In this document: positions 544 to 10,810 of the stretch, in pieces
Layout: each line of letters starts with the position of its first letter
Position numbering within the stretch: the stretch's first letter is position 1
Source: a virus
Lineage: Duplodnaviria > Heunggongvirae > Uroviricota > Caudoviricetes
Direction: 5' to 3' (one strand)
DNA length: 10,810 nucleotides
IMG/VR virus record: IMGVR_UViG_2917886563_000002
Program-made: the position numbers and the translations under genes
Notes under the pieces: model-generated
Database searches by the model: none
What the model was told of the DNA's origin: nothing
Seen by the model: only the letters and a program-made list of their open reading frames with translations

Positions 544-599
544 AATAAAACTATATTAGATTATTAATTAGATCATAATAATAATATTCTTTATATCTA

Positions 600-790
600 T
601 ATATATGATCTTTTGCCTTCCGGCGTTAGCTTCACTCCCTGGCAAGCAGCCTTACTCCGCTACCTTTGGGCTACGTTGGCTGGCCCGTTCCGCTCACACC
701 GAAAGCAAAGCGTTACTTTCTTCGTGTAACTATCGTGGCGGTAACGCCCACGAAGAAATACTATTGCGCTGTGCGCAGTAAGAGTAATCA
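600..790. other. GC-richer non-coding segment with nested inverted repeats, unassigned (candidate structured RNA or remnant of a disrupted locus)
   Basis: No ORF of useful length on either strand; local G+C clearly higher than the surrounding AT-rich DNA; contains the 10-bp arm inverted repeat at 713-762. Confidence 0.3.
713..762. repeat. Perfect 10-bp inverted repeat TTTCTTCGTG ... CACGAAGAAA with 30-nt spacer
   Basis: Read directly: tttcttcgtg at 713-722 and cacgaagaaa at 753-762. Confidence 0.7.
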
Positions 791-893
791 CCTAACCAAT
801 CATACTGATTGCTTACGTGTTAACTCTCTCTAACTCTTAATTACCCTCCTACATTTAATAACTCTCGTTATTCTCTGTAGTCGTGTAATTGTT

Positions 894-925
894 TTCGGTG
901 GAAAAGCCAGAGGCGACACCGAAAG
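894..925. repeat. 8-bp inverted repeat TTTCGGTG ... CACCGAAA, related in sequence to the 713-762 hairpin arms
   Basis: tttcggtg at 894-901 and caccgaaa at 918-925; the decamer ACACCGAAAG occurs at 696-705 and again at 916-925. Confidence 0.6.
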
Positions 926-934
926 AGAATTCTG

Positions 935-1000
935 ATCTTATTAATCTTATCTATCTTAGTTAATCTTCTTACTTATCTTACTTACTTTATCTACTTTATT
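935..1000 (+). repeat. Pyrimidine-rich tract with periodic ATCTTA hexamers (iteron-like array)
   Basis: ATCTTA at 935, 944, 953 and 975, with degenerate copies (ATCTTC, CTTACT, ATCTAC) between and after; spacing of 9 bp for the first three. Confidence 0.5.
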
Positions 1001-1507
1001 ATTAATAATAGCTTTATAAGCTCTGTGTAGCTCTCTGACGCAAGAAACAGCATTCAGGAAGGGAATCACCTTAGAAAAGGTGTTCTTTGCGTCATAATGT
1101 GTTTTATGAAGGATTCAGAGGTGTTTCATAACAGGAATGTATAGAGGATACTTTAATTAATTAAAAATAAGGGGTCTAAATGCTTCTCTAACAGCATTAA
1201 GCAGGGTAGGGAATGGAAACGCATTGTCTACATATAATAAGCTCACTACAGAGCTTTACAGAGCGTTTTTATAAAGTGACTCTCTATCTTATATCTACCA
1301 TTACCTTTTCATATACCTAACAAATACAAAATAAGCCCCTTAAATAAGCCTCTGGCGAGCTAAACAGCCATTACATAAGGGAATGTATTGCTTTTATCAA
1401 AATCTCGTTATAACGCGTTTTAGACAATAATGAAGAATGGCACTACACAGAAGAGCACGAGTTGCTCGTAAGTGCATGAAAAAGATCGATTTTTTTCGGA
1501 AGGGGTA

Positions 1508-1536
1508 TTGACAAACGTCTCTTTCTGTGCAATAAT
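1508..1536 (+). promoter_or_regulatory. Sigma70-type promoter candidate (TTGACA, 17-bp spacer, TGcAATAAT extended -10)
   Basis: ttgaca at 1508-1513; aataat at 1531-1536 preceded by tg at 1528-1529; AT-rich upstream; imperfect palindrome GCACGAGttgCTCGTaaGTGC at 1455-1475. Confidence 0.55.
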
Positions 1537-2079: not shown

Positions 2080-2769
2080 ATGATTAATCAACTAACTTTT
2101 ACAAAACACTATGACACGTTTGATAATGTATCAAAGATTTATTCTGATAAATTCCCTCAAGGAAAAGATTTAGATCTATTACATATTGTGCTTTATTTTC
2201 GATTCCTTAGTTATCAGGAAAACAACCTTAATTGTTATGAAAGTCACGAAACATTAGCTAAGATTTTTAAGTCTTCAGCGTCAACAATTAAACGTAAGAT
2301 AAACGATCTTAAAGAGATGGGATTATTAGAAACATCCCCACATCCTGATCCGTATATTTCATCTTTGATTTACAATGCTCTCCCTCTCACAGATGCACAT
2401 ATTACTCCCCCAGGAGAATCATCACTCTCTGATCTTTCTGAGGCAGAAGAAGCACAGGAACAACCTAAAGGCCATAAACAGCCTTCTTTTGATGCTCTTG
2501 ATGATTGGGATACGCCTTTACCCTGGGAGATGGAAGAAACACCTGTTTCATCAAGTGAAAAGGTAGCTAATGATAATGAGGAGGATGTGTTAAAGAATTT
2601 TGCCTCTCTTATCATCCAGGAGAAACACACAAGAACAGGAGGAGCATCATTTATTGAGTTTGCAAATTCACTAGCTTGTAGATACGGGCTAAAACGACCA
2701 AATGGTATTGAGGCATATTTTGCTAAGAAACATCCCAAAGTATATGAAGACTTTGATATTCCATTTTAA
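2080..2769 (+). CDS. Hypothetical protein with N-terminal winged-HTH-like domain, acidic Pro-rich linker and C-terminal domain (229 aa)
   Basis: SD AAGGAG 7 nt upstream; N-terminus ...LHIVLYFRFLSYQENNLNCYESHETLAKIFKSSASTIKRKINDLKEMGLLE has the look of a wHTH of phage/plasmid replication or regulatory proteins. Confidence 0.8.
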   Translation: MINQLTFTKHYDTFDNVSKIYSDKFPQGKDLDLLHIVLYFRFLSYQENNLNCYESHETLAKIFKSSASTIKRKINDLKEMGLLETSPHPDPYISSLIYNALPLTDAHITPPGESSLSDLSEAEEAQEQPKGHKQPSFDALDDWDTPLPWEMEETPVSSSEKVANDNEEDVLKNFASLIIQEKHTRTGGASFIEFANSLACRYGLKRPNGIEAYFAKKHPKVYEDFDIPF

Positions 2770-3059: not shown

Positions 3060-3100
3060 AATCTCTCTATGTAATTAAAATATAAAAGGAAAACATTATT

Positions 3101-3247
3101 ATGATAGTAGCTATGTATTGGTTATTGTTCTTTCTCACGTTAGAAGCATATTTCGGGGTGTTTTCCTTTAAAAGAAAAGGAAAAGTAAATGGCAAAAAGA
3201 AAAAAACAACGTTGTTAAGAAGATCGGTGATTCAGCTTCTCTTCTAA
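3101..3247 (+). CDS. Small predicted membrane peptide (48 aa): hydrophobic N-terminus, Lys/Arg-rich C-terminus; possibly the 5' part of a longer frameshifted gene
   Basis: ATG at 3101 with AAGGA about 10 nt upstream; hand translation MIVAMYWLLFFLTLEAYFGVFSFKRKGKVNGKKKKTTLLRRSVIQLLF; not in the ORF track. Confidence 0.4.
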   Translation: MIVAMYWLLFFLTLEAYFGVFSFKRKGKVNGKKKKTTLLRRSVIQLLF

Positions 3248-3360
3248 GTAAACCTAAATCTATTCTAAGACGCAAAGACTTTAAAGAGCTAGTTACGCTC
3301 ACCAAGCAAAATAGCGCCCCTGGCGAATGGAAAACAGAGATCATAGAACATTCTCCCTCT

Positions 3361-3600
3361 GTGCCTTGTGGAGATGAATTTAACGCCTTACAAGAAATCT
3401 TATCTTCAACACCTGGCGTATTCTGGAAACCCAGGAAAAGAAAAGAGTATATCGTTGATAGCTCTGATTTACGCAAATACCAGATTTTAGGATTTGAAGA
3501 TTATAATCACTACGTTGGTTATCTCGCTACCAATGGCCTAAATAATTTAGTTCCAGAATTCCAGATTTTAGATAATGCTGATCACTATGGAGACTTTTAA
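3361..3600 (+). CDS. Hypothetical protein fragment; this frame is open from 3172 with no ATG and is probably the downstream part of a gene starting at 3101
   Basis: Track ORF starts at GTG 3361 with no SD; the same frame is stop-free back to 3172 and overlaps the 3101-3247 ORF across an A-run at 3194-3206. Confidence 0.35.
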   Translation: MPCGDEFNALQEILSSTPGVFWKPRKRKEYIVDSSDLRKYQILGFEDYNHYVGYLATNGLNNLVPEFQILDNADHYGDF

Positions 3601-3601
3601 T

Positions 3602-3940
3602 ATGAACAAAAACACGTATGACACAATTTACTCACTAATTAATTATTATGAGGATGATTACCTCCTGCCTTTAAACCGCGCTGAACTTGAAGCATACAAA
3701 GAAAACACGCCAGCGGCACTAAATGAGGCGTTTAAACACTGGGATTTAGCTGTGAATGCCTTTGAGCACCTCTCTAAGCGTGTAGAGATGCTCTGTAAGC
3801 GCGAAAACGCATATCTGACAGCCGATCAGATATGGGAGCTATCAAACTGGATAGAAGATATTGAATCTGATGTTCGCTATGTAGGGGATGGCCTTGTTGA
3901 ACTCGCACAACGCTTAGGCGCTGCTATCACAGAAGAATAA
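3602..3940 (+). CDS. Acidic hypothetical protein (112 aa from ATG 3602; the track's 3575 start is less likely)
   Basis: GGAG at 3590-3593 sits 8 nt before ATG 3602; product MNKNTYDTIYSLINYYEDDYLLPLNRAELEAYKENTPAALNEAFKHWDLAVNAFEHLSK... is strongly net acidic by hand count (about 22 D/E against 10 K/R). Confidence 0.65.
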   Translation: MNKNTYDTIYSLINYYEDDYLLPLNRAELEAYKENTPAALNEAFKHWDLAVNAFEHLSKRVEMLCKRENAYLTADQIWELSNWIEDIESDVRYVGDGLVELAQRLGAAITEE

Positions 3941-3969
3941 AAAAAGCAACAAAAAAGTTGTAAAATATC

Positions 3970-3998
3970 TTGACATTTCATATATTGTATGTTAATAT
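3970..3998 (+). promoter_or_regulatory. Sigma70-type promoter candidate (TTGACA, 17-bp spacer, TGtTAATAT)
   Basis: ttgaca at 3970-3975; taatat at 3993-3998 preceded by tg at 3990-3991. Confidence 0.5.
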
Positions 3999-4132
3999 AA
4001 TTATATAGGGGTGATTATTTTTCCTTTATTGGTTCGATATTAAAAATTCTTCTTGTCGTTAAAGGGGAGTAAAATCTCCGCTCCCCGCTTCTCCTCCTTA
4101 AGTAATACTGTGTCATACCTCTTTTTTCCTTT

Positions 4133-4162
4133 GTTATGCATACATCTTGGAGTGTGCATAAC
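4133..4162. repeat. Inverted repeat GTTATGCA ... TGCATAAC (operator-like), with a third GTTATGCA copy at 4211-4218
   Basis: gttatgca at 4133-4140, tgcataac at 4155-4162, gttatgca at 4211-4218; adjacent palindrome CAACTTaaAAGTTG at 4217-4230. Confidence 0.6.
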
Positions 4163-4176
4163 ATAGGGTAATTACA

Positions 4177-4207
4177 AAGGCGGCTTTAAATGCTGCCTTT
4201 TATTTTG
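4177..4207 (+). terminator. Stem-loop followed by T-rich run (intrinsic terminator or attenuator candidate)
   Basis: AAGGCGGC (4177-4184) pairs with GCTGCCTT (4192-4199) with one G-T wobble, loop tttaaat, then ttattttg. Confidence 0.45.
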
Positions 4208-4268
4208 CCCGTTATGCAACTTAAAAGTTGTATTTCTTACTTTAAACAAGGTAACAAGGTTTATATAA

Positions 4269-4481
4269 ATGTTGTTCTTAAATGATAAAGAGCAAATCAT
4301 CAAGTATAAAGATGAAATGCTGCGAATTACTCCACAAATTACCGAAATGGTAGCTAAATACGCTGGGTGTTCTGTCGAGGAAGTAGAAAGATGTGTTGAA
4401 AAATATTTTTCTCCTTCTTCTCCGTCTACACCTTCCCTTAATGAATTAATCAAATTAAAAGCTAAGGAGATTACTAAATGA
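4269..4481 (+). CDS. Small acidic hypothetical protein (70 aa)
   Basis: Track ORF; weak SD (AAGG about 10 nt upstream); its stop overlaps the next start (ATGA at 4478-4481), suggesting translational coupling. Confidence 0.55.
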   Translation: MLFLNDKEQIIKYKDEMLRITPQITEMVAKYAGCSVEEVERCVEKYFSPSSPSTPSLNELIKLKAKEITK

Positions 4482-4840
4482 TTATTGATTTAGACACTCT
4501 TTTTCCAGTTCGAAAGACTTTCACAGATATTGTAAGTTACTGTACTGATCCGTTTGCTTCTGTAGAAAGCAAGGTTTTTGCTTCTCTTCCTGCTGATGTT
4601 GAATGCGGAGACTTGATCACCAGCACGGGCGCTAAATATGAATCAGGAGATGATATCTATGTTGTTATGAGTGAATTTGTAACGGCAGGAGAAAACAAGC
4701 CTGTAGATGTGCTACGTAGCAATGCTGGCCTTGTGTGCATTAAAGCTGATGCGCTGAATGCTGTAAGTGAAGCAGCAAAAACAGCATTAATTAAAAAAGG
4801 CTTCCAGCTTGAAGGCTTTAACACGGTTTTCACTTCTTAA
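4478..4840 (+). CDS. Hypothetical protein (120 aa)
   Basis: SD AAGGAGA at 4463-4469; overlapping stop-start with the upstream gene; no family recognised. Confidence 0.7.
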   Translation: MIIDLDTLFPVRKTFTDIVSYCTDPFASVESKVFASLPADVECGDLITSTGAKYESGDDIYVVMSEFVTAGENKPVDVLRSNAGLVCIKADALNAVSEAAKTALIKKGFQLEGFNTVFTS

Positions 4841-4858
4841 TAAAAGGAATAATAATAA

Positions 4859-5887
4859 ATGATTCTAGGTAATGATTACGTTGATTTAGCTCCGCTTTTC
4901 CAGACACACAGCACGCGTAACTTTCTGCTCTCTACCCTCGACTTCACTGATCCGGTGGGCGTTAGTTCTCATAAAGTAGCTGTTTCCCAGCTTGTCGAAA
5001 GCAACGAATCTCTCTTTAACAAAGAGACAAGCCGTTTTAGTTCTGAACACAATGTTACTAAGCGAGAACAAGGTAAAGAATGGCTGATTGAAATCCCGTA
5101 TTTTCTTCGTGAGGATGTGATCCGTCCTTCTGATGTTCAAGGCAAGCGTAAGCCTGGCACTGATTTTCAGGAAACACTTACTGATATCTATGCTGACTAT
5201 GTTGCTAAACACCACGTAGCGTATCAGCGTACAAAAGAGAGCGTGTTGGCGGCTTCTTTGTTCTCTGGCAAAACTTACACGCCTAAAACTGACGATGTGT
5301 TAATTGAGTGGGGCAAGCTGTTTAACGTATCAGCTATGAAAGCCACTGTTAACGCCTCCAGCACTGACACCACGAAGATTTTTAAAGAATTTGATCAGAT
5401 TGCTACTGACATTATCGAAAAAGCACAAAGCCAGGCGGCTGCTGTAGAGCGTATTGTTGTTTTCTGTAAGCCGGAAGCCTTCTCTGCAATTCGATTCTCT
5501 GCTGGTATGGCAAACGCATTCCAGTATGTAAGCCCACTGGAAGAGGGGAACGTTGTGTATCAGCGTCGTGACCTGCTACCAGGAGTGACAGCGTTCACTA
5601 TTCCAGGAACTAACATTGATGTTGTTAAACTGGTAGATCCGCTACACCTGGCACATATGACCGCAGACGCTGTAGCTGTGCCTAAATTCGCTAAAGGCTC
5701 TAACGTATATCAGAACATTTACGGGGCTGCTTCCAGCACTTTTGAACTGATTAATGCCGCTCCTGCTGAGGTGTATAGCTATAGCTATGAATCTTCTCGT
5801 GGTGATGCTGTTAACGTTGTTACAGAGAATAGCCAGATGGTGGTAAACCACGGCGTTGGCTTCTCCGTTCAAATCACTGTTAAATAA
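4859..5887 (+). CDS. Hypothetical protein (342 aa); candidate structural (capsid-like) protein, unverified
   Basis: SD AAGGA upstream; long ORF with protein-like composition and no signal peptide; followed by the strongest terminator in the window; paired with a 120-aa upstream gene. Confidence 0.8.
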   Translation: MILGNDYVDLAPLFQTHSTRNFLLSTLDFTDPVGVSSHKVAVSQLVESNESLFNKETSRFSSEHNVTKREQGKEWLIEIPYFLREDVIRPSDVQGKRKPGTDFQETLTDIYADYVAKHHVAYQRTKESVLAASLFSGKTYTPKTDDVLIEWGKLFNVSAMKATVNASSTDTTKIFKEFDQIATDIIEKAQSQAAAVERIVVFCKPEAFSAIRFSAGMANAFQYVSPLEEGNVVYQRRDLLPGVTAFTIPGTNIDVVKLVDPLHLAHMTADAVAVPKFAKGSNVYQNIYGAASSTFELINAAPAEVYSYSYESSRGDAVNVVTENSQMVVNHGVGFSVQITVK

Positions 5888-5905
5888 TATTTTAACGTGT
5901 AATAG

Positions 5906-5945
5906 AGGCGTGGCGTGTATTCACGCTTCGCCTTTTTTTATTTAT
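5906..5945 (+). terminator. Rho-independent terminator
   Basis: AGGCGTGGCGTG (5906-5917), loop tatt, CACGCTTCGCCT (5922-5933), then ttttttatttatttttt. Confidence 0.75.
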
Positions 5946-5973
5946 TTTTTAAGTTTTGAGAGGTGATTAAAAT

Positions 5974-6177
5974 ATGGAAGTGATTTTGAAATCAAAAAAT
6001 GGTGTACACGTACATTTAGATGCTAATGATTCTAGAGGCTTGTTAAATCTGAAATATCTATGTTCTCTTTTAGATGTTCCCTATGAAGGCGTAAAAGCCC
6101 GTATGTTCAGATTAAACGAGAGTATTGATCAGGCTCTACACCATTTCTTAAGCAAAGAAGGTGGTAAAAATGATTAA
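5974..6177 (+). CDS. Small hypothetical protein (67 aa)
   Basis: SD GAGGTGA 7 nt upstream of ATG 5974; stop 6 nt before the SD of the next gene. Confidence 0.6.
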   Translation: MEVILKSKNGVHVHLDANDSRGLLNLKYLCSLLDVPYEGVKARMFRLNESIDQALHHFLSKEGGKND

Positions 6178-6191
6178 TAAGGGGATTTTAA

Positions 6192-8024
6192 ATGTTAGAA
6201 ATTAACACTTCCAAGATTAAAAATACAGTAACATTTACTGTAGATAAAGACAGCTTGAAAAAAGCGAAAGACTCTATTACAGGCTTAAAGGAATTCGCAG
6301 AGAACATCAAGCCAGCTAAATTAAGATTTGATAGTGTCACTAAAGGCTATAAGAAAGCACAAAGCGAAGTAGACAAGATTGCTCAACAGAAAGCTAAAAC
6401 AGAAAAGCAAAATCAAAGAGCACAAGCTGCCGCAGCAAGAGCACAGGCAAGGCAACAGCAACAAATAGCAGCACGTAAGGAGAAGGCAAACTTAAAACTG
6501 TTAGACGTTGGATCAAGCATTAGTGCATTGCACCGCCTCTCTGTAGCGGAACAATACAAAGCTATTGCACAGGCTAGAGAGATAGCGAAACAATATGAGC
6601 AAGGGGCTATCTCGCTTGCACGTATGAATAGCCAGATGAAACGCTTACAACAGCAACAACGTAAGATTAATGGCAATAGAAAAACTCAATTAGCCCCCGT
6701 TAAGGGAGGAGGATCAGGGAATGCCGCCACTATGGGCGCTCTGTTATTTGGAGGCGCTACGGCTGCTGCTGGCGTGATGGCTGTTAGTAAAACCTCTGAA
6801 TTTATGGCTAACAGCTTTGCGAATGCTGAAACACAAGGCGAGCTAATTCAACGTGCAAGGCTTGGCGGTGTAGACGTTAACCAGATGTATAATATTACAG
6901 AATGGGCCTATAGAAACGGGATCGACTCTATGATGGGTGATCAAGGGGCTAGGAAATACCTGGATCAGATGAAAGATGTTAGGGAACGTGCCGCAAAATC
7001 CTATAGTGAAGCTGAATTAGTGAAAGATAAGAAAACAGGAAAATCTGAATGGAAAGGCGGTGATAACGCTATTAATGAACTTCTAAACATCGGTGTTATT
7101 AACAAAAGCGACCTTAAAAAATTTGCTGATAATCCAGCCGGATTAATTTCTAAGGCTGTTAATGGAATGATGAAAAAAGGGTTTTCAGACTCCCAAATTG
7201 GACAACGTTTAGAAGACCTGGGCGATGATTTGATGCTTACGTCAAAATATTGGCAACGTTCCGTTAAAGATGTACAAGAAAGCATTAACCAGCAAAAAGC
7301 CGCCGGACAATGGCTAACAGAAACACAGCAAGACTCTATTGTTAAATTCAGAGAACTAAACAGACAGCTTTCACAGCTTTCTGATGCAAGACAAGTAGCA
7401 TTCGTAGACGGCTTTATGAAATCTCTTGATCCAAAAGTAACGGAAGAGTTTATGAAAAACCTTTCTAATCTCACTCCGTATTTTACGAAGCTGGGAGAAG
7501 CTACAGGAAGTCTCTTTGAAGCCATTATGAAGATTGTAAACTGGTTTAATCGTAATGATGATAAGACAGATGCTATTCAGAAAAATATGGGTGATGCACC
7601 GCCACTATCTAACGATGGAATGAAACAGAATCTTTCTAACCTCGTTCCTGACCAATATAAAGGCGCTGGCACTGCAACAACTACACCTGATAATAGTCGT
7701 TCTCTCTTTAACACGATTAAGGGATTGCTTTTTGATGATAATTCTTCTGTGTCAGATGTAAAAATGTCAGTCAATGAAGCACCGATAACCAATCTCAAAC
7801 AGGGTGCTTTAAATAATCTTGCAATGACAACTCCGGCTTATAATTTATCTCCTGTGTTTAATCTGAATCCAACGTTTGAAGTGGTAACAGAGGTTCCGCT
7901 TACTATTAATTCTGACACGTCCAGATTAAGTGATTATGTGGATTTTACAGCGAGAGCAAGTCGGGATATCTTCTTGAAATCATTAACATTAACCAGCTTA
8001 TCAGGACAATCTAACGGCGGGTAA
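6192..8024 (+). CDS. Large hypothetical protein (610 aa): Gln/Ala-rich coiled-coil-like N-region, Gly/Ala hydrophobic segment, Asn/Ser/Thr-rich C-terminus; tape-measure-like or scaffold-like, unverified
   Basis: SD AAGGGGA upstream; segments ...KTEKQNQRAQAAAARAQARQQQQIAARKEKANLK... and ...GGGSGNAATMGALLFGGATAAAGVMAVS...; no signal peptide. Confidence 0.8.
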   Translation: MLEINTSKIKNTVTFTVDKDSLKKAKDSITGLKEFAENIKPAKLRFDSVTKGYKKAQSEVDKIAQQKAKTEKQNQRAQAAAARAQARQQQQIAARKEKANLKLLDVGSSISALHRLSVAEQYKAIAQAREIAKQYEQGAISLARMNSQMKRLQQQQRKINGNRKTQLAPVKGGGSGNAATMGALLFGGATAAAGVMAVSKTSEFMANSFANAETQGELIQRARLGGVDVNQMYNITEWAYRNGIDSMMGDQGARKYLDQMKDVRERAAKSYSEAELVKDKKTGKSEWKGGDNAINELLNIGVINKSDLKKFADNPAGLISKAVNGMMKKGFSDSQIGQRLEDLGDDLMLTSKYWQRSVKDVQESINQQKAAGQWLTETQQDSIVKFRELNRQLSQLSDARQVAFVDGFMKSLDPKVTEEFMKNLSNLTPYFTKLGEATGSLFEAIMKIVNWFNRNDDKTDAIQKNMGDAPPLSNDGMKQNLSNLVPDQYKGAGTATTTPDNSRSLFNTIKGLLFDDNSSVSDVKMSVNEAPITNLKQGALNNLAMTTPAYNLSPVFNLNPTFEVVTEVPLTINSDTSRLSDYVDFTARASRDIFLKSLTLTSLSGQSNGG

Positions 8025-8057
8025 TTCCCGCCATAACATTACAAGGAAATTATTATT

Positions 8058-8768
8058 ATGGCGACGGCGGGAATTTTAACCATACGTGCAGCAAATACTC
8101 CAGAACAACACGTTCAGGCTGTTTACAAAGCAGAACAAGATATAAACTCTACAAAAAACGAAAATAGCAAAGCTAATAAAACAAAAGGAGAAAATGGATT
8201 TGCTATTGTCACCAGTGGGCTGGCATCTTCTGTAAGTGACGTTTATGAAAATTATATGGCGTTATCCTTTGACAGTGTTGACGATGTGAACGTGAGACGT
8301 TCGGCAGATGTCACAAGCTATCCTGTAGAAAATGGAGCTAATGTATCGGATCACGTTCAAGTTAAGAATAATAAGTTTGCTCTTAAAGGGCGTATCTCTG
8401 AAACACCGATTAAAAGCGATCCTGGCTTGTTAAAGAGTGCAGGGGTGAACGGGAACAGAAGATCATTAGCTATCGACTACCTGAATCAGATTATGGACAG
8501 TAGACAGCCTTTTCTTCTTGTTACAGAAAATAAAACTTTTGAGAACGTTGTTTTAACAGGCATCGAATACACAGAAGAGGCAAGCGAATCTCTGGTATTT
8601 GATTTGGAATTTGAGCAAATCAGATTAGTTTCTTATGGCACTGTAAACACTGTAGCTATCAAAACACAGCCATCTAAGAACATCGGGGCTAATATGAAAA
8701 AACGTGTTAACACTGAAAAAACAAGTGAAGGTGAAGACACTATTACTCCTGCCTTTAAGCAGGAATAG
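8058..8768 (+). CDS. Hypothetical protein (236 aa); possible virion or tail-associated protein, unverified
   Basis: SD AAGGA 10 nt upstream; immediately follows the 610-aa gene; a stem-loop follows the stop. Confidence 0.75.
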   Translation: MATAGILTIRAANTPEQHVQAVYKAEQDINSTKNENSKANKTKGENGFAIVTSGLASSVSDVYENYMALSFDSVDDVNVRRSADVTSYPVENGANVSDHVQVKNNKFALKGRISETPIKSDPGLLKSAGVNGNRRSLAIDYLNQIMDSRQPFLLVTENKTFENVVLTGIEYTEEASESLVFDLEFEQIRLVSYGTVNTVAIKTQPSKNIGANMKKRVNTEKTSEGEDTITPAFKQE

Positions 8769-8849: not shown

Positions 8850-9848
8850 CTATGGCGTTGTTTTACGCCTTAAATTTGATTTTTTATTGATTGATAAGCC
8901 TTTCTCTATTTCAGGGTAGCGTAGAAGCTCAATATATTTTTTAAGCTCTACTGGAGAAGCTGCATTCTTGCTATATGTGCGGAATGTCTCTGTATTGCCG
9001 CGTGTATGGCCCAGGAGAAGGGCGATCCTGTCTTCTGGAATTTGATTTCGATCAAGAAGCTGTGCTACTCCGTGTCTCAGAGAATGAAACACCTTCCTTT
9101 CTGTTCCCTTTTCCCCTAAAGCCTTTCGTTTAGCTCTTGTAAATCTCTGCGTGTGCCACGTGGAACGTTTACCATCAGCACGCTCTGTAATGCTGGCGTG
9201 ATAGAACAAAAAGCCATTGTGAGGCTTTTCACGAAGAGATAACACCAACGGAGTGATAAGGCTATGTACAGGCACAAGACGTGCCGCAGCTTTCGTTTTT
9301 CCCTGTGTGATTTCAAAACACAGCACACCTTCGATCTCTTTCACATCGTCTATTGTGAGACTTGCTATCTCATTGATCCGCATACCTGTATATAAACCGA
9401 TAAGACACAAAGCCGTCATTTCTTTGTTTTCTGCTGAATTACCGGAAAATACTTGCAACACCTGCAATAGCTCTTTGTTAGAAAATGCCTCATAGCTCTC
9501 TCTACTTTGTGCCACATCAAGCCTATGCCCTCGCCAGGGGGAGAGCGCCCTTTCTGGCGCATCGTGGTAACGTGATGAAGCTAACTCCCATAGCTGGGCC
9601 ATTGGGCTGATATAATTTGCAATTGATTGTTGTGAAAGGGTTTTTTGCATGCGTTCTATCCAGCCTGTAACAGTGGTGCGGCTCACATCTTGCAATGCAA
9701 TATCAGGCTTTTTACGGTAGGAGAGAAACATCTCTACCGCTTTTCTTGCCTTAGCTAAAGTGGCTGGCTTCTTCTTCGTGCTGTTAATTGTCAGGTAGAT
9801 TTCAAGAATTTTAAGCAATGACGGACACGAAGACGCTGTATCTTGCAT
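8850..9848 (-). CDS. Tyrosine site-specific recombinase (integrase), 332 aa
   Basis: Catalytic-domain signature in order: Arg in ...LYTGMRINEIASL..., H-x-x-R in ...FHSLRHGVAQLL..., ...LLGHTRG..., and Tyr in ...TFRTYSK...; N-terminal region ...LEIYLTINSTKKKPATLAKARKAVEMFLSY... resembles a core-binding domain. Confidence 0.9.
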   Translation of the reverse strand: MQDTASSCPSLLKILEIYLTINSTKKKPATLAKARKAVEMFLSYRKKPDIALQDVSRTTVTGWIERMQKTLSQQSIANYISPMAQLWELASSRYHDAPERALSPWRGHRLDVAQSRESYEAFSNKELLQVLQVFSGNSAENKEMTALCLIGLYTGMRINEIASLTIDDVKEIEGVLCFEITQGKTKAAARLVPVHSLITPLVLSLREKPHNGFLFYHASITERADGKRSTWHTQRFTRAKRKALGEKGTERKVFHSLRHGVAQLLDRNQIPEDRIALLLGHTRGNTETFRTYSKNAASPVELKKYIELLRYPEIEKGLSINKKSNLRRKTTP

Positions 9849-9925
9849 TCTGGTAGCTGTTTTGGCGTATTTAGCCTTACTTCGTAACAGTTCCAGCGTG
9901 TTCTCTATTGTGCTGTTTACAGGAG

Positions 9926-10810
9926 TGATCTTGACCCGCTATCTCCGGACCGCTTTTGTATCTTAAGTTAACGATGCCCGCTGCCGCCGGTATTCCCTCG
10001 GAGAGTAATATCCCAGCGCGCTGTGCGGGTGGTTTTCATTGTAATGCGTGAACGCTGCTGCAAGGTTTTGCAGGGCTGTTCTCACATCCGGTTTTGGCAT
10101 GAACGCGATATAGTCTTCTTTCATCGTCTTCACGAACCGTTCGGCCATGCCATTACTCTGCGGACTGCTCACCGCTGTTGTACAGGGTTCAAGATTCAGC
10201 TCTCTGGCGAACCTCCGCGTTTCATGCGCAGTATACGCTGAACCGTTATCCGTCAACCACTGCACTGGTGTGTCCGGCAACCTGTCGCCGAAGCGCTTTT
10301 CCACCGACCTCAGCATCACATCCTGTACGGTCGAACTGTCGTAGCCTCCCGTGCTCGCTGCCCAGTCTATGGCCTCTCTGTCGCAGCAGTCCAGCGCGAA
10401 CGTCACCCGCAGTTTTTCACCGTTGTCGCAGCCGAACTCGAAGCCGTCTGAACACCAGCGCATATTGCTTTCTGCCACCGCGATTTTTCCCTTGTGTTCA
10501 CGCTTCGGTCGCTCTGGTTTGTCATGCAACAACAACAGGTTATGCTCGCTCATTATCCTGTAAAGTCGTTTGGCGTTCACCGGTGGCTCTCCCTCAGTGC
10601 GACGTTGCTTGCGCAGGATGCCCCACACGCGTCGATAACCATAACTCGGCATATCGCTGATGATATCGAGGATATCCGTCAGTATTTCAGCGTCTGCTTC
10701 GTCATTACGCCGGTTACAGCGCCTGTCCTGCCAGTCGGCAGAACGGTTAACTCGCAGTGACAGCTGCGCACGCGACACGCCCATGGTGCGGCTGACCAGG
10801 GCTATTCCCC
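9926..10810 (-). mobile_element. IS3-family insertion sequence, IS2-like, partial (OrfA side runs off the right window edge)
   Basis: Minus-strand end reads ...GGCGGCAGCGGGCATCGTTAACTTAAGATACAAAAGCGGTCCGGAGATAGCGGGTCAAGATCA, the same pattern as the IS2 right end as recalled; G+C rises at 9926; encodes an IS2 OrfB-like transposase. Confidence 0.88.
9963..10784 (-). CDS. IS3-family (IS2 group) transposase OrfB, DDE catalytic domain
   Basis: ...[13 protein letters not shown]...RWCSDGFEF...[13 protein letters not shown]...[11 protein letters not shown]...[11 protein letters not shown]...[12 protein letters not shown]; D, D and E motif residues present; frame continues upstream past 10784 toward the window edge. 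Confidence 0.92.

Follow-up and report, generated by a model that had tools for sequence, protein, structure and literature searches.

A covarying hairpin domain beside the iteron origin of a presumed Escherichia phage satellite: a candidate single-stranded DNA signal

What is the role of about 1 kb of DNA that lies, without a credible gene, between the end of an insertion sequence (IS) and the first operon of an integrated phage-like element? We asked this of positions 544–1500 of a 10,810-nucleotide stretch of viral DNA (IMG/VR record IMGVR_UViG_2917886563_000002; the window, below), which is a copy of a ∼12-kb Escherichia integrative element that we read as a satellite of phi92-like virulent phages. 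A preliminary description of the region had listed two hairpins, a duplicated decamer and a periodic hexamer array, and had offered a replication origin, a transfer origin, recombination arm sites, a structured RNA gene or the remnant of an IS target as explanations. The reading that we rank first, with less than even confidence, is that 544–1500 is the non-coding, origin-proximal part of the satellite's replication and control module, and that a conserved hairpin domain within it would act as an origin-associated single-stranded DNA (ssDNA) signal resembling single-strand initiation (ssi) sites. Second in our ranking, and held more doubtfully, comes an undescribed structured RNA.

The 544–1500 query matched 681 of 5,426 complete E. 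coli genomes, nearly always in the chromosome, with ≥80% query coverage in 411. The region is integral to the element and conserved in those 411 genomes, and hence not the remnant of a site into which the IS inserted; nor is it poorly conserved or missing from homologous elements, for which the preliminary description had allowed. The absence of a credible open reading frame (ORF) was borne out: only one is of note, at 605–781 (58 aa), and close relatives (e.g. L011) have single-base indels in it whose total is not divisible by three. Alleles of the module were compared from other E. coli genomes and viral contigs; eight can be aligned (A–F, H and I), and G is very diverged. They share an order: their own iterons, an AT-rich tract, ∼0.8–1.2 kb free of genes, a strong sigma-70 promoter, and genes for a p58-like protein, usually also a p55-like one, and the winged-helix initiator. 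In lineage A, identity over the region is 0.94–0.97, much like that of the structural genes, compared to 0.93–0.98 for much of the rest of the element, which by itself proves nothing; what counts is the pattern across alleles, where identity of the GC-rich island falls to ∼66% for A versus B and C.

That island, at 611–790 on the + strand, is homologous in alleles A–F, H and I. Its elevated GC content, remarked on previously, is real (0.505 in 601–800 versus 0.33–0.40 on either side), and in all alleles it starts 0–60 nt after the AT-rich element. By comparison of the alleles, 611–790 is a strand-specific multi-hairpin domain, whose helices are kept by compensatory change and in which two short motifs are invariant. 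In the first helix, P1 (641–685, + strand), GGC (641–643) and CAGCC (647–651), with AAG (644–646) bulged between them, pair with GCC (683–685) and GGCTG (678–682), respectively. Its inner stem varies among alleles as CAGCC/GGCTG, TGACC/GGTCA, TGTCC/GGACA and CATAG/CTATG; across the eight alleles 39 of 40 pairs are canonical, compared to 5–16 of 40 with the 3′ arm shifted out of register; each of the five inner pairs shows at least two pair types. A pair-count check on an 11-sequence alignment, with ends trimmed flush to keep register, found 95.8% paired, three of five pairs changed on both sides, and a covariation score of 0.553 versus 0.232 in shuffles (0 of 500 as high). RNAalifold on plain MAFFT alignments missed P1 owing to a one-column register shift.

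Past P1 stands the first invariant motif, unpaired CCGCTCA (690–696, + strand; CTGCTCA in allele I), and then helix Y (717–726 / 749–758, + strand), the perfect inverted repeat with 10-bp arms that had been noticed at the outset and is the longest in the region; a small hairpin, GGCG-GTAA-CGCC (737–748, + strand), sits inside it. Single changes in helix Y in L012 and L010 yield G·T pairs on the + strand, and one-sided substitutions yield both G·T and A·C pairs (A·C in L024). Every allele (eight of eight) has at this position a perfect hairpin of 5–10 bp ending 7–9 nt before the second invariant motif, the hairpin GCGC-TGT-GCGC (766–776, + strand; GCGC-CGTGT-GCGC in allele F). Its stem takes at least six different sequences, with per-allele shuffle frequencies of 0–12%, and alleles E and F have in common a three-branched version with compensatory differences. 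Both invariant motifs keep to the + strand, and L041 is the one locus where they are not single-copy. Of 16 matches returned by one pattern search, 11 were due to chance. Taken singly, the features of the region exceed chance modestly: an inverted repeat of at least 10 bp arises in 6% of dinucleotide shuffles, three copies of a G+C-containing 8-mer in 13 of 300, and ATCTTA occurs 5 times with 0.78 expected. We nonetheless hold them to be real, because comparison of the eight alleles shows that the structure of the first hairpin and of the GC island has been conserved. A structured nucleic acid, one of the options first offered, stays live on account of P1 and the positional hairpin.

What adjoins this domain on its left? 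By homology to intact elements, 544–611 (GC 0.37–0.40) is the AT-rich right flank of an iteron origin, presumably the DNA-unwinding element; it contains an 8-bp inverted repeat (AGATCATA at 570–577 / TATGATCT at 604–611) and GATC sites at 571 and 607. The end of an IS3-family insertion sequence fills 1–543 on the - strand (orfA 159–470; NCBIfam transpos_IS3 match), and homology of the window to intact elements such as L001 starts at ∼538–544 and runs rightward; relatives have an iteron array where the window has the IS. In L001 five tandem 22-bp iterons (TAGGTCAyaGTGAgCTAGGGGG) end ∼10 bp before the position equivalent to 544, on its left, and a duplicated 40-bp AT-rich box (family D7) stands on both sides of them, its right copy corresponding to window 560–600. 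Of the initial suggestion of a replication origin, then, one part holds, as an origin is involved and the region supplies its AT-rich flank; the other part does not, as the true iterons are these 22-bp repeats, just left of 544 in intact relatives, and the ATCTTA array, which is lineage-specific and indel-prone, was rejected as an iteron set. The initiator, Rep, is a 229-aa winged-helix protein in the window (2080–2769, + strand; phrog_270 “replication initiation protein”, Pfam HTH_36). Iteron type and Rep type change together across alleles, with Rep ∼30% identical or unrelated between alleles carrying different iterons, and this joint change supports the origin assignment. A winged-helix initiator with iterons would mark a theta-type origin, for which autonomous replication is predicted. 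No convincing iteron-like, DnaA-box, integration host factor or Chi site was found in the region.

Two further observations concern the origin side of L001. To the left of its main iterons, at 11733–11831, are GATACCCCTATCAA repeats, which in alleles D and H serve as the principal iterons; L001 thus seems to retain part of an origin of a second type. At 11052–11079 there is a near-consensus sigma-70 promoter (TTGACT, 16-nt spacer, TATAAT) directed rightward, ahead of which are iterons and repeats over ∼900 bp but no ORF.

The proposed mechanism draws on the whole module, that is iterons, AT-rich unwinding element, ∼1 kb of non-coding DNA, promoter, two small genes and Rep. Rep would bind the iterons and open the AT-rich element, and the adjoining domain would turn single-stranded. 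The + strand of the domain, presumably the lagging-strand template of a rightward fork, would then fold into the conserved hairpins and act as a single-strand initiation signal, at which host or helper primase or helicase-loading machinery would start DNA synthesis. That the domain always comes right after the unwinding element and keeps its motifs constant is as expected of a signal read once single-stranded, and that the motifs are invariant while Rep and iterons differ suggests that a shared factor, encoded by host or helper, reads them in every allele. As in ssi sites, there is a strand-specific hairpin structure beside an origin, conserved as structure; a primer-directing function is predicted.

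There are precedents for parts of this arrangement. The oriV of RSF1010 (IncQ) likewise has iterons, a GC-rich and an AT-rich segment, and then strand-specific hairpin signals that become single-stranded on opening; these hairpin-containing sites beside the iterons, ssiA and ssiB, are thereby exposed, and the primase binds a short unpaired motif by the hairpin (PMC8567376). RSF1010 has two 40-nt signals on opposite strands, however, whereas the present element has a single ∼180-nt domain, confined to one strand; it also encodes the primase RepB′ and a helicase, whereas no primase gene was found here, and no sequence similarity between the two was detected. Single-strand origins of the ssoA type, found in rolling-circle plasmids, are orientation-specific stretches of 150–300 nt in which structure covaries and only short unpaired motifs are conserved. 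The present domain resembles them as an orientation-specific non-coding domain conserved as structure with short unpaired motifs, but ssoA origins serve HUH-Rep rolling-circle replicons and are read by host RNA polymerase, in contrast to the winged-helix initiator and iterons seen here. Among satellites, the origins of Staphylococcus aureus pathogenicity islands (SaPI) and other phage-inducible chromosomal islands (PICI), of P4 (ori and crr) and of the PICI-like elements (PLE) have a satellite initiator acting on iterons by an AT-rich tract, along with a long non-coding stretch; we know of none with a covarying hairpin domain beside the origin. The present element also differs from these satellites in having capsid, tape-measure-like and Dit-like genes and in being without terminase, portal, Sid/Psu and alpha primase.

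Several points weigh against an ssDNA signal. The alleles are mosaic and not independent, and therefore the helix and hairpin figures, such as 39 of 40 pairs, 0 of 500 shuffles or eight of eight alleles, are not probabilities; moreover, the P1 register was set by hand. Folding energies are only modestly better than those of shuffles and are alike on both strands (minimum free energy (MFE) z-scores for the island range from -0.4 to -4.3 across alleles, and for the whole region from -1.95 to +0.5 in lineage A). The 10.8-kb window has no iteron-like site at all; in this copy the origin has therefore either been split by the IS or deleted, and may be broken. Pfam and PHROGs scans of the ORFs revealed no primase domain, so that an enzyme of the host or helper would be required. 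Homology among the alleles extends ∼400 nt past the domain, longer than any ssi signal known to us, and the conserved T-run at its far end is as expected for a terminator. Finally, ssDNA and RNA are not separable from sequence alone.

The last of these points brings in the RNA alternative, a less probable reading, in which the domain, perhaps as far as ∼1270, would be the gene for an undescribed structured non-coding RNA (ncRNA); its rightward transcription would start at a promoter in the AT-rich box that is weak or depends on the helper and would end at the conserved T-run, and its role would lie in satellite immunity, copy-number control or helper sensing. Stated for the family, and again only tentatively, the GC island, perhaps with ∼400 nt downstream, might be an undescribed ncRNA class of the satellites of phi92-like phages, with a helper-dependent promoter, serving as an immunity, replication-priming or helper-sensing molecule. 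Covarying helices, a conserved AAG bulge and conserved loop motifs are typical of functional RNAs, and several one-sided changes yield G·U pairs on the + strand, although some variants (L024) give A·C and not G·U; the G·U content of MFE structures was tried as a means of telling RNA from DNA, and was uninformative. The MFE z-score in allele A is weak (-1.2). Collinear homology continues for ∼400 nt and includes a partly covarying GGCT..AGCC helix, yet RNAalifold found no net covariation downstream of the GC island (covariation term +4.9). At the far end a T-run preceded by a hairpin stands at the same alignment position in all alleles (1266–1270 in the window); in lineage A no canonical stem adjoins it. 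At the near end, alleles A, D, H and I have -10-like hexamers, seen by eye (TATGAT, TAATAT, TATGGT and TATGTT), 2–3 nt ahead of TTTTGC, but -35 regions are poor, alleles A, C and I have no predicted sigma-70 promoter within the domain or immediately before it, and allele I has a hairpin and T-run just upstream of the domain.

Database searches speak against a known RNA. The covariance-model scan that the preliminary description had proposed gave zero Rfam matches in the window, at either the gathering score or E ≤ 10, and zero at the gathering score for the region in seven other loci (alleles B–I), so that no allele examined has an Rfam match; a tRNA/tmRNA scan also found none. A retron, likewise suggested, finds no support, with no reverse-transcriptase domain among the ORFs scanned. 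A functional parallel would be the P4 CI RNA and antisense RNAs of the C4 type, which are small and structured and take the place of a repressor protein in a satellite: no obvious repressor gene is evident in the present element by the Pfam and PHROGs scan of its ORFs, three copies of CACCGAAA would permit alternative pairings, and the repeated short sequence with its complement recalls the seqA/seqB/seqC logic. Here, however, there is no Rfam C4 match, the domain is upstream of the operon promoter and not in the leader, and the repeat triplet is restricted to lineage A.

To the right of these parts the module ends in what, by its conservation across alleles, is a region upstream of the operon promoter (∼1290–1500), and this is where duplex DNA comes into question. 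The control region proper (1292–1500, + strand) is common to alleles A and B, and ∼1290–1660 is shared even with distant B alleles; the only match of the region in plasmid collections is its promoter-proximal 350 bp, in two related copies. It includes two copies of a 13-bp repeat, AAATAAGCCNCT (AAATAAGCC), at 1329–1353; ATTACAC-type boxes at ∼1370–1382 and 1441–1452; GCGTTTTAGA at 1415–1424, once in the window and twice in relatives; and a hairpin at 1453–1470. The sigma-70 promoter of the p58/p55/Rep operon follows at 1508–1536 (+ strand; TTGACA, 17-nt spacer, AATAAT, TG; 11 of 12 matches) and is conserved in all alleles. Between it and the first gene is a leader hairpin with a T-run (1591–1634, + strand), a possible attenuator; among relatives the stem is kept while the loop varies, which suggests attenuation control of the Rep operon. 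The 13-bp unit TTAAATAAGCCAC occurs in several tandem copies at L010 ∼4780–4850, a copy-number variation upstream of the promoter. The ATTACACAGGGAA-type (ATTACAC-type) box is present in ∼7 copies left of the iterons (L001 11116–11681) and in two upstream of the operon promoter, and is rare in the first 50 kb of phi92.

Might the whole region, then, be an array of duplex binding sites (operators, enhancer-like or bending sites) at which proteins of the satellite, host or helper control origin firing or the operon promoter? We consider this improbable. It is favoured by the distribution of the ATTACAC-type boxes just described, by GTGTAAT on the other strand at 883 and in a 105-bp unit lost from the window (below), by the 13-bp repeats with their copy-number variation and the GCGTTTTAGA repeats, by the spacing of ATCTTA units at about one helical turn, and by p55, which by reading of its sequence looks like a ribbon-helix-helix protein, though with no Pfam match. 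Duplex sites would not be expected, however, to show compensatory changes that keep intrastrand pairing, loops of 3–23 nt between the arms rule out dimer operators, and the ATCTTA array is absent from other alleles. The duplex protein-binding reading probably holds for 1290–1500 and not for 611–790.

The interval that remains, 800–1290, is a lineage-variable spacer. Compared to most relatives, the window has lost a unit of ∼105 bp between 869 and 870 (deletion junction 869–890); the unit is flanked by a direct repeat of 17–42 bp (attctctgtagtYgtgtaatt), carries the GGCT..AGCC helix, which is partly conserved and partly covarying, and is missing from L042 as well. The second hairpin is present as described (TTTTCGGTG at 892–900 / CACCGAAAG at 917–925, + strand), and its loop motif GCCAGAGG (906–913) is conserved in alleles C–I; its supposed relationship to the first hairpin is a superficial likeness and not homology. 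The decamer ACACCGAAAG does occur at 696 and 916, with its complement at 891–900, and this duplication or triplet is found in lineage A only. The CT-rich tract was recovered by Tandem Repeats Finder (TRF) as a pyrimidine-rich low-complexity ATCTTA/CTTA array (932–1002), with ATCTTA or ATCTTC hexamers at 935, 944, 953, 963 and 975 and TRF periods of 9, 13 and 26 over 935–1002; the reported ATCTTA hexamers are thus in place at 935–975. The array is the most indel-prone spot, with indels of 4–23 bp among close relatives and varying copy number, and is lineage-specific, being absent from alleles B–I. A third hairpin, at 1036–1094 on the + strand (TGACGCAA.. / ..TTGCGTCA enclosing CACCTTAGAAAAGGTG), belongs to the A lineage only. 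All three of these, the array, the decamer duplication and the third hairpin, would be lineage-specific filler or tuning elements.

Such variability raises the question of whether the region does anything at all, or is functionless spacer or decayed coding DNA kept by the youth of the element, or as stuffer to a packageable length; we regard this as very unlikely for the region as a whole. It would agree with a lineage-A conservation no higher than that of the rest of the element and with the tolerance of the window copy for the 105-bp deletion and of the array for indels. It agrees poorly with an architecture that recurs in eight alleles diverged to ∼66% identity (A versus B and C), with invariant motifs and covarying helices, and with the lack of an ORF or conserved frames and of any pseudogene called in the region by the NCBI Prokaryotic Genome Annotation Pipeline in any locus. 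For 611–790 the spacer reading is largely refuted; for 930–1250 it is possible.

Least probable of all are a packaging (pac/cos) site, a transfer origin and a site of recombination. Such sites typically contain hairpins and repeats, and a satellite must carry a packaging signal; yet the sole helper-like sequence, a perfect match to phi92 (below), lies ∼1.3 kb left of the region in relatives and is absent from the window. Phage similarity was not found for 544–1660, nor plasmid similarity for 600–1100, and the region has no match in the first 50 kb of phi92. The transfer origin put forward earlier is further disfavoured by the lack of a relaxase domain among the ORFs scanned, and recombination arm sites likewise find no support, the att/tRNA end being >2.5 kb away. 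A serine recombinase found nearby in relatives belongs to the optional cargo, and genomes do not differ in the orientation of the segment; an invertible segment served by it was rejected, as the + strand ORF there in some genomes is a different gene. Also set aside were an XerCD/dif-like site at GCGCTGTGCGCA (by eye, the XerD arm is absent and the flank not conserved) and a likeness of GGTAAGTGCC to the RSF1010 nick region, which is not conserved across alleles.

What kind of element carries this module? In annotated relatives it is next to tRNA-Gly, tRNA-Thr or tRNA-Leu, and the order is tRNA, ∼3.7 kb nearly free of genes, one rightward operon and a leftward integrase. The operon opens with p58 and p55 (58 and 55 aa, + strand), followed by Rep. 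According to Pfam and PHROGs, other window products include a lambda E-type major capsid protein, a Dit-like tail protein and a tyrosine integrase, together with a tape-measure-like protein (610 aa, phrog_16051); terminase, portal, protease and lysis genes were not seen among the window genes. The tape-measure-like protein is ∼30–36% identical to tape-measure proteins of phi92-/phAPEC8-type 150-kb myoviruses, and L001 10658–10697 matches phi92 (FR775895.2) 357–318 in the opposite orientation at 40 of 40 bases, where phi92 318–357 spans the right edge of the left direct terminal repeat (1–343). This tape-measure similarity and terminal-repeat match are why we read the element as a satellite of phi92-like phages, and the 40-bp match is probably its packaging signal. 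Similar 46-bp matches are present in dozens of phi92-like phage records. No paper connecting satellites with phi92-like phages was found in the literature searched, and the hairpin domain is absent from that literature and from Rfam; the satellite family carrying it is apparently undescribed. A search with the p58 protein for relatives outside Escherichia returned Escherichia only. EDL933 has a cryptic prophage, CP-933H, in which antibiotics induce the “tail fiber” genes Z0314 and Z0316 (PMC4048457); this prophage may be an element of the present kind.

Some further features of the element and its relatives may be recorded. The structural module (4478–8768) consists only of a 120-aa protein, the lambda E-type capsid protein, a 67-aa protein and the tape-measure-like and Dit-like proteins, a set that is not known from P4-like, PICI, capsid-forming PICI (cf-PICI) or PLE satellites. 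The window integrase (8850–10810 segment; 332 aa) is unlike that of L001, homology to which ends at 8891, and an IS2-type transposase lies at 9963–10784, so that both ends of the window copy touch IS3-family elements. Two further, apparently gene-free gaps within the operon (3060–3575 and 3940–4269) are 93–98% conserved among lineage-A relatives, and B-type relatives have a gap of ∼1 kb at the matching position (L005 8696–9681). Between tRNA and iterons, relatives have a variable cargo slot (e.g. L005 4181–4732 and L012 2683–3222) with a serine recombinase in many copies and other genes elsewhere; neighbouring islands carry the defence genes GmrSD, HNH, AIPR and KwaB. One allele is in the E. 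coli B lineage, adjoining thiM: this short relative of the module (L046, in C41(DE3)) is without capsid genes and has iterons, non-coding domain, promoter and three genes, making laboratory B strains a convenient experimental system.

If the domain is an ssDNA signal, it would show how a satellite without a primase or helicase of its own recruits the replication machinery of host or helper, and would offer a means to block or engineer elements of this kind. Should it instead be an RNA, it would be a new structured RNA class in at least 411 of 5,426 complete E. coli genomes, including enterohaemorrhagic E. coli (EHEC)-sized, avian pathogenic E. coli (APEC) and B-lineage strains. Either way, the module of iterons, AT-rich box, hairpin domain and promoter is a clean, testable system, and it points to an unreported satellite–helper pair, an element like CP-933H/Sp1 and phi92-like phages, which would be relevant to phage therapy.

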